A DNA stretch of 64,000 bases. It comes from Clostridia bacterium. Its GTDB lineage: Bacteria; Bacillota; Clostridia; Christensenellales; Aristaeellaceae. The notes below the pieces were generated by a model. The model worked only from the letters and a program-made list of their open reading frames with translations, did not search any database and was not told where the DNA came from. Both the position numbers and the translations under genes were made by a program. Location: contig JAFUXH010000100.1 in assembly GCA_017470945.1 (NCBI GenBank), positions 1,084 to 65,083 on the forward strand, in the 5' to 3' direction. Numbering within the stretch: the first letter of the stretch is position 1; each line of letters opens with the position of its first letter. This document shows positions 54,011-64,000 of this stretch, in pieces.

Positions 54011-54118
54011 TTACTTCAGCTCCGCGAAGTACTTGATGGTGCGAACCATCTGAGAGGTGTAGGAATTTTCGTTGTCGTACCAGCTCACGACCTGCACCTG
54101 GGCGGTGTCGTCGTCGAT
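54011..54118 (-). pseudogene. gap: displaced 3'-terminal fragment of gap (last 35 codons plus stop)
   Basis: Translates to [35 protein letters not shown]. No upstream continuation; the sequence diverges at 54119. Confidence 0.85.
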
Positions 54119-54346
54119 AAACCGTTGCTGCGCAACGGTTTTAGGGGTGCCGCTGCCCGTCTTTGCGTAGGCTTGTTTACTTGTCAAATCACGATATTGC
54201 CTATCGTACCTTCGGCCAACTGGCCTATTGGACTACGTTGGAAGTGTATCATACCATTTTCGGCCCGTCAAGCGAAAAAGAAAGATCGTAAACGAAAGGC
54301 CCGTAAAAGTTGAAAAGGAAAGAGCGTTGTTCCGATGACAAGCAAA

Positions 54347-54381
54347 ATCCCCGCCGTCCGATGAAGGGCGGCGGGGATCAT
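54347..54381. repeat. 35-nt GC hairpin, copy 1 (atccccgccgtccgatgaagggcggcggggatcat)
   Basis: 33/35 identical to 55088-55122. On the minus strand it is followed by a T-run and can serve as the terminator of the toxin-antitoxin pair. Confidence 0.7.
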
Positions 54382-54392
54382 GTTTAGCGGGT

Positions 54393-54728
54393 TCATTCCG
54401 AAAGCAGCTTCATAATCTGCTTTTCAAAAGCGGGCAAATCCTGTGTGCAGGTGCTGTAAACGTCCTCTTTGCGCAGCGTTTGATATTTGTGCGCGGTCAC
54501 GTCCCGCATACCGGCGATGGCCCGCCAGGGGATTTCTTTGTGTGCGTCCTTCAAATCCTGTGTGATATTCTTCACTAACTCGCCAATATTGATCAGCGTC
54601 ATGCTGACCGCCCGGGCCGTGCGTTCATCCGTCAAAAACTGTTCCAGAGAAACGCCGTCCAAGAGTTCCCGAGCCAAAGCGATTTCCGACAGGATTTTGT
54701 TGCAGACTTGCGTGTCTCTTCCATTCAT
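54393..54728 (-). CDS. hepT: HepT-like HEPN (DUF86) toxin
   Basis: 111 aa. R-x4-H motif in AGMRDVTAHKY. 4-nt overlap with the upstream nucleotidyltransferase gene. Confidence 0.85.
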   Translation of the reverse strand: MNGRDTQVCNKILSEIALARELLDGVSLEQFLTDERTARAVSMTLINIGELVKNITQDLKDAHKEIPWRAIAGMRDVTAHKYQTLRKEDVYSTCTQDLPAFEKQIMKLLSE

Positions 54729-55006
54729 AGCACCCGCACGACCTTTCCAACCGTGATCATGCTGCCCTCGGGCAAGGGAGCGTGAATCACATCCACAGGC
54801 AGGCCCAGCGCATCTTCCAGATCGTATTTCAAGGCGTTCAGCTTCACCAGCGAAACGGCGGGAGAATCAAATTCCACCAGCAAATCCAAATCGCTTTCGC
54901 TGGTAGCCCGGCCATCGGCAAACGATCCGAAAATGCTGACCTTGCGCAGCGCATAGGCATTTTTCATTCCGTACAACGTATCGCGGATGATGTCAACCGT
55001 AGGCAT
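54725..55006 (-). CDS. mntA: MntA-like minimal nucleotidyltransferase antitoxin
   Basis: 93 aa from MPTVDIIRD. GSFADGRATSESDLDLLVEF motif. Confidence 0.85.
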   Translation of the reverse strand: MPTVDIIRDTLYGMKNAYALRKVSIFGSFADGRATSESDLDLLVEFDSPAVSLVKLNALKYDLEDALGLPVDVIHAPLPEGSMITVGKVVRVL

Positions 55007-55087
55007 TTTTCTTCCCCCTTTCCCGTTTTTATTATAGCCGATTCCTGCTGAAAATTCAACGCATATTTTGTTTTGAACGATGATACG

Positions 55088-55122
55088 ATCCCCGCCGCCC
55101 GATGAAGGGCAGCGGGGATCAT
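55088..55122. repeat. 35-nt GC hairpin, copy 2
   Basis: atccccgccgcccgatgaagggcagcggggatcat, 12 nt below the stop of the 98-aa membrane protein gene. No T-run on the minus strand. Confidence 0.7.
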
Positions 55123-55133
55123 TTATTGTGTGA

Positions 55134-55430
55134 TTATGCGTTCTTCTTTTCTTGTTCGCGCTCCACATATGCTTTTGCGGCCAGATTGGCAGCAATGACG
55201 CTATTTTCAGCAGCTTCGCCAATGGCATATAATACAAGTGAACCAAGCCATGAGAGCAAAGGACCGATGATTGCAATTAAAATCCCCGAAACAATATATA
55301 TCTCGCCGTCACGATACATATTAGCTCCACTCACAATCATCGCAATACCGCCAATGATAGAAGCGATAATCCCCAGCCAGCAGAGCACCTTTGCCAAAGT
55401 CTTACATTTTCCACCAATATTATCAAACAT
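55134..55430 (-). CDS. small membrane protein (2-3 transmembrane segments), unknown function
   Basis: 98 aa. Hydrophobic core plus a charged C-terminal tail. The RBS AAGGAGGG lies inside the end of the upstream gene. Confidence 0.6.
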   Translation of the reverse strand: MFDNIGGKCKTLAKVLCWLGIIASIIGGIAMIVSGANMYRDGEIYIVSGILIAIIGPLLSWLGSLVLYAIGEAAENSVIAANLAAKAYVEREQEKKNA

Positions 55431-61840: not shown

Positions 61841-61867
61841 GCCCCGCAAGGGTAGGGAGGAAAGCGC

Positions 61868-62023
61868 ATGTTTTACATTGTGCGCACTTTTGAAGCTGGC
61901 CGCATCCTCGAACAGGAATTTGATACGCTGGATGAAGCGCGGGATTATATGCAGACCATGACCAACCATGCAGAATTGTATGTTTGGATCGGCGGGGAAG
62001 AAAAATTCATGGAATCTGTGTAG
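61868..62023 (+). CDS. 51-aa hypothetical protein
   Basis: ATG behind GGGAGG. MFYIVRTFEAGRILEQEFDTLDEARDYMQT... Not in the track (under 60 aa). Confidence 0.4.
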   Translation: MFYIVRTFEAGRILEQEFDTLDEARDYMQTMTNHAELYVWIGGEEKFMESV

Positions 62024-62157
62024 CAAAACCATCCGTTATCGTTTTCAGCCGTCAGACGGCGCGGGAACACCGAAAAAACCCGAAAATGTGTAAAAGAAAC
62101 CGGTAAACGAAACGAAATTCCGCGCGGCGGGTTTTCGTTGACAGGAGGAAAAACGCA

Positions 62158-62751
62158 ATGGCAAAGAATTACGGTTACGCCCGCTGTTCCCTGGGCGAAG
62201 AAAAAGGGCAAGACCTCAACCGCCAAATCCGCGAACTGAAAGCGGCAGGCGCAGAGGAAATCATTACGGAGCGCGAACACGGCGACGCGGACAAGCAAAA
62301 TCTGAATCTGCTCTTGAACAGCATGGAAGAAAAATCGACCCTGTATGTATGCGAAGTGTCGCGCCTTGCCCGATCCACAAAAATGCTGTGCGATATTATC
62401 AGCATTATCAAGGAAAAGCATTTGCGGCTTGTGATCCTGGGCAGCATCACCGTGGATTGCAGGGCGGGCGAAATGGACTGCATGTCTGTTGCTTTCCTGC
62501 AAATGGCGGGCGTATTCGCAGAGGTCGAATTGCAAATGACCAGGGCCAGAGTGCGCAGCGGCCTTGCCAATGCCCGCGCAAAAGGAAAGCGCATAGGCCG
62601 CAAGCCCACCACAAAGGACGATATTCCCGCCGCCTTTTACAAGCACTATCCCGCTTTTGCTTCGGGCCAACTGAACGTGTCGGAATTTGCGCGGCTGTGT
62701 GATCTGTCCCGGCCCAGCATCTACAAATACTTGAATCTGGTGGAAAAATAA
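62158..62751 (+). CDS. small serine recombinase (resolvase/invertase family)
   Basis: YGYARCSLGEEKGQDLNRQ (catalytic Ser region), VSRLARS, C-terminal HTH VSEFARLCDLSRPSIYKYL. 197 aa. Confidence 0.85.
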   Translation: MAKNYGYARCSLGEEKGQDLNRQIRELKAAGAEEIITEREHGDADKQNLNLLLNSMEEKSTLYVCEVSRLARSTKMLCDIISIIKEKHLRLVILGSITVDCRAGEMDCMSVAFLQMAGVFAEVELQMTRARVRSGLANARAKGKRIGRKPTTKDDIPAAFYKHYPAFASGQLNVSEFARLCDLSRPSIYKYLNLVEK

Positions 62752-62757
62752 AAATGT

Positions 62758-62792
62758 CGCCCGCCGTCCCATTGTCCGCAGAACGGCGGGCG
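62758..62792. terminator. bidirectional terminator hairpin
   Basis: 10-bp stem cgcccgccgt/acggcgggcg between the convergent recombinase genes. Confidence 0.55.
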
Positions 62793-62799
62793 CATCGTT

Positions 62800-63774
62800 T
62801 TACAAATTCGCCAGCACACCCGTTTTCATGGCTGCATCCAGCACTTCCTTATCTTCCAAGCCCTCTAAATATCGCTGTGTGATCGCAACACTTTCATGTC
62901 CCATCACTCTTGACAGGCTGTATAAATCCAGCCCGTTTTTTAATTGCATCTGCGCAAAGGTGTGCCGCAGGGTATGGGGAGAAACGCGGATTTGTTCATT
63001 CACGCCTACATCCTTTGCGGCCTTTTTCAGAAATTTCGTTACCGCTTCGGGCGTCAGCTTTTTGCCTGTCCGCGAAACGAAATAATAGCTTTCGGGAAAC
63101 TTGATCCCTTCAAAGAAGTATTCCCGCGCGGCATTGTACTGCATCATGGCTTTTGCCAGATACGGCGAAACGGGCACAAGCCTTTCCTTTGCCCCTTTGC
63201 CATGCACAAGGATGAAATCATCGTGTATTTGTTCCGGCTTCAATGTCAGTACTTCGCTCAACCGCATCCCCGTATCAAAGAACAGGGCAATCATCGTCCG
63301 ATTGCGAATATCAAGAAAATCCCTGCCGTTAAAATACGTTAGCATTTTCCGAACTTCGGAATTGTTGAAAGTCAGGATTTTCACTTTCGGCTGTTTCATG
63401 TTCTTGATGTTCGCCGTGGGGCGTTCTTTCACATAGCCCTCTTTCTTGCAATAGTTGAAAAAGGTTTTGAACGCTTTGAGCAAGTCATTGATGTACCGCG
63501 CCTTGCGGCCCTGATCGTCCTTCATGGCAAGGAAGTGCTTGATGTGAATGCTCTTGACCGCTTCAACTTCCGTGATCCCAAATTCGTTTTCCAAATACCG
63601 TTGCAGATATTTCAACTGCTTTTGATAATTGGAGATCGTTTTTGGTGACAGCTTCCGAATCTTGCAATCAAACCCGAACTCTTGAATCCCATCCGCCATT
63701 GTCATAGAAAAAACCCTCTTTCCGTCCTGTTTTACCAGTTGGAAAGAGGGTAAGATGCCTATCGTAGTTGACAA
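62800..63774 (-). CDS. tyrosine recombinase / phage-type integrase
   Basis: SAM-like N-domain. Catalytic R (GMRLSEV), HTLRHTF, GHESVAITQRYL. 324 aa. Confidence 0.9.
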   Translation of the reverse strand: MSTTIGILPSFQLVKQDGKRVFSMTMADGIQEFGFDCKIRKLSPKTISNYQKQLKYLQRYLENEFGITEVEAVKSIHIKHFLAMKDDQGRKARYINDLLKAFKTFFNYCKKEGYVKERPTANIKNMKQPKVKILTFNNSEVRKMLTYFNGRDFLDIRNRTMIALFFDTGMRLSEVLTLKPEQIHDDFILVHGKGAKERLVPVSPYLAKAMMQYNAAREYFFEGIKFPESYYFVSRTGKKLTPEAVTKFLKKAAKDVGVNEQIRVSPHTLRHTFAQMQLKNGLDLYSLSRVMGHESVAITQRYLEGLEDKEVLDAAMKTGVLANL

Positions 63775-63875
63775 GTAAGAAGCCTTCCTTGCCTACGCGC
63801 ATTCAGCAGCTTTTTTCATACTTCCGCTTATCCTTCGCGGCTTCTCAAAGGCCCGAAAACCCTTGATTTTCCTGA

Positions 63876-64000
63876 TTATTTCAGCTCGGCGAAATATTTG
63901 ATCGTCCGAACCATCTGCGAAGTATAGCTGTTCTCGTTGTCGTACCAGGACACGACCTGCACCTGGGCGGTGTCGTCGTCGATCTTGGTGACCATGGTCT
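63876..64000 (-). CDS. gap: glyceraldehyde-3-phosphate dehydrogenase, 3' end (gene continues beyond the window)
   Basis: ...[40 protein letters not shown]. The SWYDNE motif is diagnostic of the GAPDH C-terminus. Confidence 0.85.
   Translation of the reverse strand, partial: [40 protein letters not shown]

Follow-up and report, generated by a model that had tools for sequence, protein, structure and literature searches.

Results

Duplication of the 3′ end of gap

We analysed a 64,000-nt window of contig JAFUXH010000100.1 (assembly GCA_017470945.1; Clostridia bacterium, family Aristaeellaceae), at the right end of which some 9.76 kb of DNA, including a tyrosine integrase gene (int), lies between two copies of the 3′ end of gap, the gene encoding GAPDH. 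The final 35 codons and the stop codon of gap are present twice on the minus strand, in direct orientation (Table 1). One copy runs upstream into the gap body (TMVTK...), while the other is an orphan, preceded by unrelated DNA and followed by a terminator with a 13-bp stem. Over its 110 nt the repeat has 15 mismatches (86% identity); no other repeat in the region exceeds 50 nt, and no third gap fragment was found in the whole window. Similarity ceases precisely at the gap-internal edge of a perfect 33-nt block, cacgacctgcacctgggcggtgtcgtcgtcgat. Translation of the minus strand yields the identical 35-residue peptide from both copies, despite mismatches that include the serine codon switches TCC/AGC and AGC/TCC. 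A first-pass annotation of this DNA, made from the sequence alone, had described the orphan and contiguous copies, the perfect core with its sharp edge, the roughly 15 differences that leave the peptide unchanged, and the terminator behind the orphan; alignment and folding bore out all of these.

The same annotation had itself raised the possibility that the direct repeat arose during assembly. The junction between gap and int recurs at 99.7–100% identity in contigs of four other assemblies (L005–L008), and two further sequencing runs (L177 and L178) again show element DNA joined to the orphan core, in contigs that end inside the core, as expected at a repeat. Since both junctions recur in other assemblies and sequencing runs, the repeat is not an assembly artefact.

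Codon usage distinguishes the two copies. Thirteen codons differ, and in the integrase-proximal copy eight of these are used 0–1 times in the 307-codon gap body. From codon 327 on, this copy reads TAT, ACT, TCG, CGG, ACG, AAA, TAT, and AAA (0–1 uses each), whereas the orphan has TAC, ACC, CGC, and AAG, which are preferred codons used 5–24 times. Because of this preference relative to the gap body, the orphan is, as judged by its codons, the gene end that the host originally had, and the foreign copy is the one now fused to gap. The first-pass annotation had put the distinction as a greater use of A/T at wobble positions in the integrase-proximal copy. The claim is clear as codon preference but weak when expressed as G+C content of third codon positions (GC3), which is 0.75 versus 0.83 after the core and similar for the copies overall (0.83 versus 0.89), and the signal is mixed at codons 324–325.

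Separately, a near-identical element from another sample (SRR12529324; L006:1–60, equivalent to window positions 63850–63908) has a gene end at attL, the gap-side attachment site, that mixes orphan-type codons (CGC ACC ATC AAG TAC) with element-type ones (GCC, AAA). Such a mixture points to a variant element or to an exchange of sequence between the repeat copies.

A Xer-like integrase next to the restored gene

The int gene adjoins attL, starting 170 nt past the gap stop codon, and encodes a 301-aa Xer-like tyrosine integrase. Its start had earlier been placed at a TTG (63774), which did not hold up: an ATG at 63705 fits both the public gene calls and the 300–301-aa length of the homologues. 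The catalytic residues R148, H244, R247, H270, and Y279 are invariant in an alignment of 21 family members. Against the NCBIfam equivalog models the protein scored 198.9 bits for XerC (cut-off 335) and 185.4 bits for XerD (cut-off 329.6); with scores so far below the cut-offs, it does not qualify as a chromosomal dimer-resolution recombinase. There is no extra N-terminal domain. Relatives in metagenomes number in the thousands, while phage and plasmid collections contained no integrase more than 40% identical.

Relatives share the gap target

Related loci were collected by a scan of one genome per species, which returned metagenome-assembled genomes and isolates of Clostridia. In all 37 loci that encode an integrase of at least 48% identity and extend far enough upstream, gap ends 130–214 nt before int, in the same orientation. 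Isolates among the hosts include Christensenella tenuis (L030) and Caproiciproducens galactitolivorans (L027). The targeted hosts include organisms whose GAPDH is only 44–46% identical to that of the window (Caproiciproducens, L027; Intestinibacillus, L029; C. tenuis, L030). At the site, the two GAPDH classes have only TGGTAYGAYAAYGAR in common at the DNA level; it encodes the WYDNE motif, and the DNA encoding this motif is probably the common target of the family.

A second gap fragment lies downstream in ten relatives, where it bounds elements of 1.9 kb (L009), 2.9 kb (L013 and L032), 6.4 kb (L039), about 8 kb (L047), 8.8 kb (L033), 9.1 kb (L061), 9.6 kb (L030), and 10.3 kb (L014 and L022). 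The left repeat boundaries in relatives lie between 108 and 61 nt before the stop codon, and most still take in the WYDNE DNA. The backbone of these elements is conserved and consists of int, a resolvase, ArdC, a small Gp157-like protein, and an XRE regulator with divergent promoters. The cargo is variable, and at the nucleotide level no relative resembles the left 6 kb of the window element. Defence-type cargo is abundant in the relatives (WYL/WCX regulators, an Eco57I-type methylase, a type I restriction subunit, a reverse transcriptase–protease fusion, DUF4062, and DUF6119).

Some sites are decayed. L091 (4070–4330) retains an element-type arm, a hairpin, and a 35-aa int stub behind gap, int is truncated in L061 and L067, and the L009 repeat has a 4-nt deletion. 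The gap site apparently accumulates tandem and decayed elements. Extra integrase fragments were also seen beyond the orphan repeat of L013 (4615–4919). In C. tenuis NSJ-35 the displaced gap fragment (L030:18867–19434) is far longer than the others, at 568 nt (codons 145–333, 95.8% identical to the intact gene), which suggests longer homology in the attachment site of the free element (attP) or later homologous exchange. A 42%-identical integrase of Candidatus Clostridium eludens (L041:9096–10921) lies about 160 nt after a yebC-family gene, not gap. This sister lineage appears to use another housekeeping target, which fits the known rule that integrase clades track target genes (PMC4701971).

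Occupied and empty alleles, and an attP-like region in a phage contig

The protein P0130, a GAPDH, is specified by an allele that has int downstream in L092 and by alleles that lack it in L088, L089, L090, and L093. Comparison of the occupied allele with the empty ones revealed 0–3 differences per 100 nt, 10 synonymous differences in nt 901–1000, and unrelated sequence after the stop codon, so that divergence sets in about 100 nt before the stop. The first-pass annotation had proposed looking for empty sites in related genomes; they were found for this relative's allele, but not for the species of the window.

In a siphovirus-like contig (L097; IMG/VR UViG_3300006099_000008) with genes for tape-measure, Dit, tail, and head proteins, the tail or lysis genes give way to an AT-rich arm. 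Next come a 129-nt GC-rich fragment of the gap 3′ end, another arm, a hairpin, and an int gene whose product is 46% identical to the window integrase. The arrangement (attP-like region, L097:9697–10001) looks like that expected of an attP carrying the host gene end, here in a phage genome.

Non-coding DNA between gap and int, and the far arm

The earlier statement that no obvious terminator separates the gap stop codon from int proved incorrect. A hairpin of the form ACCCUCUUUCC-N17-GGAAAGAGGGU is followed by UUUUUCU and then by the AUG of int, the U-tract ending 2 nt before the start codon. An equivalent hairpin and U-tract were present in 35 of 35 relatives folded (−17 to −32 kcal/mol), with the start codon at most 5 nt past the U-tract. 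The stem sequences vary among relatives while complementarity is kept, for example CCCCACUUUC/GAAAGUGGGG and GCACCUCUUAUCA/UGAUAGGAGGUGC. These hairpins were folded sequence by sequence, anchored on the U-tract; a consensus computed with MAFFT and RNAalifold gave no structure, the alignment being out of register. The predicted hairpin is a replacement terminator for gap, supplied by the element, and with such a terminator between the two genes gap read-through into int should be a leak at most.

The arm between gap and the hairpin (P′) contains boxes that recur in the arm at the far border (P), box1 being inverted there. Box1, CAAGGSTTTKCG, lies 9–12 nt past the stop codon in 19 of 36 relatives, and a twentieth match, in L045, lies 22 nt past it. 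A box3-like sequence, GGTACGATAAAC, is found about 104–109 nt past the stop in 15 of the 36, and anywhere in the arm in 17. At the far border, a GC-rich hairpin abuts the repeat boundary, and hairpins of unrelated sequence occupy the same place in L009, L013, L014, L032, and L061. We considered this hairpin as a terminator and dropped the idea, as in most relatives neither strand has a U-tract. Facing outward, toward the orphan repeat, is a promoter-like site; among related arms, 5 of 10 have such a site 120–155 nt from the repeat, compared with 10% of shuffled arms. No promoter belonging to int itself could be recognised in the integrated state.

Composition and gene content of the island

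The DNA between the gap-end copies (54119–63873) has a G+C content of 0.491, compared with 0.611 for window positions 1–52000. A backbone operon (60506–62751, plus strand) convergent with int encodes the Gp157-like protein, ArdC, a 51-aa open reading frame (ORF), and the serine resolvase, and the gene for the 80-aa XRE regulator diverges from it across two near-consensus promoters. The remaining features are listed in Table 1.

Table 1. Features of the gap-associated island and its borders, in window coordinates (strand "." where none applies)
Feature	Position	Strand	Evidence or remark
Native gap terminator, now behind the orphan	53968–53997	.	13-pair stem, bidirectional
attR repeat copy: orphan gap 3′ end, the displaced host original by its codons	54009–54118	-	perfect block at 54086–54118; host-preferred codons
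Hairpin abutting the repeat boundary (aaaccgttg-ctgcg-caacggttt)	54119–54141	.	9-bp stem
P arm	54142–54242	-	box GGTACGATAGGCA at 54198–54210; inverted-repeat partner AGGCTTGTTTACTTGTCAA at 54169–54187
Promoter-like site reading out toward the orphan repeat	54243–54271	-	TTGACG-17-TACACT with upstream TG
MntA-HepT toxin–antitoxin pair (nucleotidyltransferase and HEPN RNase)	54393–55006	-	Pfam NTP_transf_2, HepT-like; PADLOC PDC-S09
Cargo: five small/membrane proteins	55134–56920	-	no known families
XRE helix-turn-helix (HTH) protein, 246 aa, C-terminal membrane/extracellular part	57117–57857	-	
31-nt repeats with palindrome ATTTGCATGTAAATGC between two divergent genes; candidate operators/iterons	57963–58160	.	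repeat search
HTH_36 protein, 247 aa, weakly like replication initiators and DnaD-like helicase loaders	58313–59056	+	E-values only 1e-5 to 3e-6
Gene-poor 1-kb stretch, several hairpins	59057–60102	.	no ORF with a family match, no Rfam match
XRE/Cro-C1-type HTH regulator, 80 aa, candidate element repressor	60103–60345	-	Pfam HTH_26, E=1.3e-20; PHROG repressor families
Divergent switch-like promoter region: leftward TTGAAA-17-TATAAT, rightward TTGACA-17-TATAAT	60345–60475	.	11/12 and 12/12 consensus matches
Small protein (91–127 aa), weakly Gp157-like, first gene of backbone operon	60506–60889	+	PHROG 6244 and 434, weak Pfam matches; conserved in relatives
ArdC-like anti-restriction protein (ArdcN and zincin metallopeptidase domains)	60998–61840	+	62–71% identical in 9 related loci
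51-aa ORF of backbone operon	61868–62023	+	called in L005; 43%-identical homologue in L022; no family match
Small serine recombinase (resolvase/invertase type), 197 aa	62158–62751	+	Pfam Resolvase, E=3.5e-24; kept beside ArdC in relatives
Bidirectional terminator between convergent int and resolvase genes	62758–62792	.	
Xer-like tyrosine integrase, 301 aa	62800–63705	-	PF00589 (Phage_integrase), E=1.9e-30; PF02899, E=6.6e-10
Terminator-like hairpin with U-tract, 3′ arm holding the int Shine-Dalgarno sequence; predicted replacement gap terminator	63708–63752	-	11-bp stem; fold −22.8 kcal/mol
P′ arm, gap stop to hairpin	63753–63873	-	box CAAGGGTTTTCG at 63854–63865; inverted repeat TTGACAAGTAAGAAGCCT at 63768–63785; box CTACGATAGGCA at 63756–63767
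attL repeat copy: gap 3′ end (35 codons and stop) joined to the gene; distal part probably element-supplied	63874–63983	-	codons rare relative to gap body
Perfect 33-nt identity block in attL, same as 54086–54118; one candidate crossover region	63951–63983	.	
gap (GAPDH) body, exits window	63984–64000	-	TMVTK into repeat; full 342-aa GAPDH on L005, 100% identical over 61046–64000

Several further observations concern the left part of the island. Two 50-nt repeats (54347–54396 and 55088–55137), 82% identical and each forming a GC-rich hairpin, bracket the MntA-HepT genes, as if the pair were arranged as a cassette. The repeats at 57963–58160 comprise two tandem 31-nt copies and a weaker third copy 136 nt downstream, between the gene for the XRE membrane protein and that for the Rep-like HTH_36 protein. 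The gene-poor stretch contains strong hairpins at 59200–59237, 59921–59947, and 60056–60078, and could be an origin of replication, an origin of transfer (oriT), or an unknown RNA. An Rfam scan of 53500–64000 returned only a chance miRNA match. Outside the island, the flank at 52001–54008 contains the gene for a 210-aa lipoprotein-like protein (53282–53914) and an adjacent ORF, 363 aa as called in L001. Neither product has a recorded Pfam match, and the only close homologues of the 210-aa protein are exact copies. This flank might be older island cargo, though without a further gap fragment.

Discussion

Integration model

The DNA at 54119–63873 is very probably a site-specific integrative island of about 9.76 kb whose own Xer-like tyrosine integrase inserted it into the gap 3′ end. 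This origin is backed by the direct repeat and the genes between its copies, by the association with gap across the family, by one relative's allele in both occupied and empty form, and by the attP-like arrangement in a phage contig. The first-pass annotation had read the locus as a tyrosine-integrase element bearing its own synonymous gap end, and the intact int gene, the codon usage, the 37 of 37 relatives, the pair of allele states, and L097 support that reading.

According to this model, a circular form would carry an attP consisting of about 108 nt of gap 3′ coding sequence between two arms with repeated boxes, and would recombine with chromosomal gap inside the shared segment. At attL, the body of the host gene would become fused to the synonymous end brought by the element, followed by the element's terminator and int. 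At attR, the host's own gap end and terminator would be left as an orphan, displaced 9.8 kb away. The replacement end being synonymous, the GAPDH sequence would be unchanged, and the strong transcription of gap would be halted before int by the element-supplied terminator. As to movement, the backbone (ArdC, resolvase, regulatory switch, and Rep-like protein) suggests an excised, possibly replicating form moved by a helper, and mobilisation by a helper phage or a conjugative element is the most likely route of transfer.

Several results weigh against this model or limit its detail. The integrase has no recognisable arm-binding domain, yet the arms carry repeated boxes. The crossover position is ambiguous, with the 33-nt block and a 15-nt identical block, CTGGTACGACAACGA, both eligible, and the signals at codons 324–325 are mixed. 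A crossover necessarily inside the 33-nt block was rejected as unproven, since the repeat boundaries of relatives and the shared WYDNE DNA favour the downstream 15-nt block equally. The flank at 52001–54008 has an intermediate G+C content of 0.552; composition alone therefore fails to mark the left boundary, and it is the repeats that define the border. Pfam, PHROG, NCBIfam, and PADLOC scans of the element ORFs detected no relaxase, Mob family protein, or type IV secretion gene, and no oriT was recognised in the element. Pfam, NCBIfam, and PADLOC scans that included small ORFs detected no excisionase. Structural PHROG matches, present in L097, were absent from the window element. The lack of recognised transfer genes could mean that the element is immobile, or that it needs unknown helpers. 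A search of metagenome contigs for exact matches to the host terminator joined to the orphan, as in an empty site of the window species, returned nothing, and all copies recovered for this species were occupied; degenerate scans of metagenome and viral contigs for attP/attR junctions returned no excised circle.

The same scans bear on the class of the element. A type IV secretion system, coupling protein, and relaxase were not detected and, at 9.8 kb, it is too small for an integrative and conjugative element (ICE). No relaxase, mobilisation protein, or oriT of its own was recognised that would place it among integrative and mobilisable elements (IMEs), nor were virion, packaging, or lysis genes of a prophage detected. 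Of the traits of phage satellites resembling phage-inducible chromosomal islands, it has int, XRE regulators with divergent promoters, and the weakly Rep-like HTH_36 protein, while a primase, a small terminase, and a capsid-remodelling gene were not recognised.

Alternative explanations

An element of the same origin may in the window be a grounded remnant that no longer excises or transfers, persisting as a fixed island with a toxin–antitoxin pair and other cargo. We regard this as unlikely, though deserving of real weight. Excisionase and transfer genes were not recognised in the ORF scans, decayed relatives of the kinds described above are known, no circular junction was found in contig collections, and all recovered copies come from a few related rumen samples. 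The source samples are SAMN15829977, SRR12529324, and SRR12529340. On the other hand, the integrase is full length with every catalytic residue, both att sites and both arms are intact, and the hairpin and the boxes of the arms show the conservation seen in intact relatives. The missing circles mean little, since the collections searched probably do not include this organism: the 210-aa flank protein has no close homologues apart from exact copies, implying that the species is too rare in them.

The polarity of the repeat could also be the reverse, the integrase-proximal copy being the host's own end and the orphan being borne by the element. Over codons 319–325 the integrase-proximal copy has AAC, the host-preferred codon (16 uses versus 2), and the overall GC3 values of the copies are alike. 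We nevertheless consider a reversed polarity very improbable, as the codons of this copy from 327 onward are nearly absent from the gap body while those of the orphan are preferred, the orphan is followed by a terminator and then by genes outside the element, the integrase-proximal gene end of L092 is the part that diverges from the empty allele, and the gap fragment of the phage contig lies directly upstream of int. A scenario without integration, in which the repeat would stem from partial duplication of gap in place or from chimeric assembly, has a very low probability: the contigs are metagenome assemblies and several break inside the repeat, but each junction was seen again in independent assemblies and sequencing runs, 15 synonymous differences would not arise from a recent duplication, and dozens of genomes, including the isolates L030 and L027, have the same architecture.

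A further proposal concerns the function of the conserved non-coding architecture of the integrated island, which might constitute a state switch for int; we put this forward as a rather unlikely idea. The 3′ arm of the hairpin would sequester the ribosome-binding site of int, so that integrase would be made only from rare read-through of the heavily transcribed gap, tying the potential for excision to transcription of a glycolytic gene. In the circle, the outward promoter (54271–54243) would come to lie upstream of attP and int and would raise integrase levels for re-integration. If true, the family would have adapted the gap terminator as a regulatory element, beyond mere use of a conserved landing site.

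Comparison with known elements

Tyrosine-integrase elements are known in the 3′ ends of rpsI, rplL, rpmG, guaA, lysS, and trmE, with repeats that preserve the gene product (PMC5704250, PMC4701971). ICESt1 and ICESt3 of Streptococcus thermophilus target the 3′ end of fda, a glycolytic gene (PMC3234194). In the case of e14, inserted in icd, the restored icdA and the orphan icdC differ by 12 single-nucleotide polymorphisms, and crossover occurs in an 11-bp repeat (PMC4759930). The first-pass annotation had called an essential glycolytic gene an uncommon attachment target. Glycolytic and central-metabolism targets have precedents in fda (PMC3234194) and icd (PMC4759930), while gap itself was found in no report: full-text literature searches returned nothing relevant on gap or gapA as an attachment site, which is absence of evidence only, island databases such as TIGER/Islander being outside the scope of the searches.

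The closest parallel in form is e14 (and phage 21) in Escherichia coli icd, also a tyrosine-integrase element in the 3′ end of a central-metabolism gene that supplies a replacement end with mostly silent changes. Whereas e14 is a defective prophage of lambdoid type, phage structural genes were not found in the window element, which occupies gap rather than icd in a Clostridia host and has a Xer-like integrase without an N-terminal arm-binding domain, less than 40% identical to any integrase of phage collections. Like ICESt1/ICESt3, it belongs to a Firmicute and has a tyrosine integrase that inserts site-specifically at the 3′ end of a glycolytic gene. Those elements, however, are 30–35 kb long and conjugative, with a relaxase and type IV secretion, none of which was found here, and they differ in target gene and integrase family. 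Streptococcal ICEs and IMEs (in rpsI, rplL, rpmG, rpmE, guaA, and lysS) resemble the present family in that integrase clades track targets and the repeats hold the end of an essential gene whose product is unchanged (PMC4701971, PMC5704250). Tandem accretion, decayed remnants, an IME-like size, toxin–antitoxin cargo, and a Rep-like gene are further likenesses. Their repeats are 12–54 bp and nearly identical, whereas the gene-derived segment here is 108 nt and 14% diverged, and no relaxase or oriT that would mark the element as an IME was identified. Islands and prophages in tRNA and tmRNA genes (P4-like and others) likewise have an attP that holds the 3′ part of the gene, int beside the restored gene, and the displaced end at the far border, but the target here is protein-coding. 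With a protein-coding target, the replacement need only be synonymous, and the copies are thus free to diverge at wobble positions.

The integration strategy is thus already known; what is new is the gap target and the integrase family. The long, diverged gene-derived repeat is unusual, and a conserved hairpin combining terminator and Shine-Dalgarno sequence is also present. Since the mechanism is a textbook one, the biological surprise is modest.

Significance for gut and rumen Clostridia

The results add gap to the housekeeping genes that serve as landing sites, and reveal a large integrase family, hitherto uncharacterised, among Clostridia of gut and rumen (Christensenellales, Faecalibacterium, Caproiciproducens, and Intestinibacillus), borne by prophages, by islands of 2–10 kb, and by decayed remnants. 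In annotation, orphan gap 3′ fragments in such genomes should be read as island borders, not as pseudogenes. The apparent target being the DNA for the near-universal WYDNE motif, the integrase together with attP could serve as an integration tool for Clostridia that are hard to engineer. The gap site is also a predictable hotspot in which to look for defence and toxin–antitoxin cargo.

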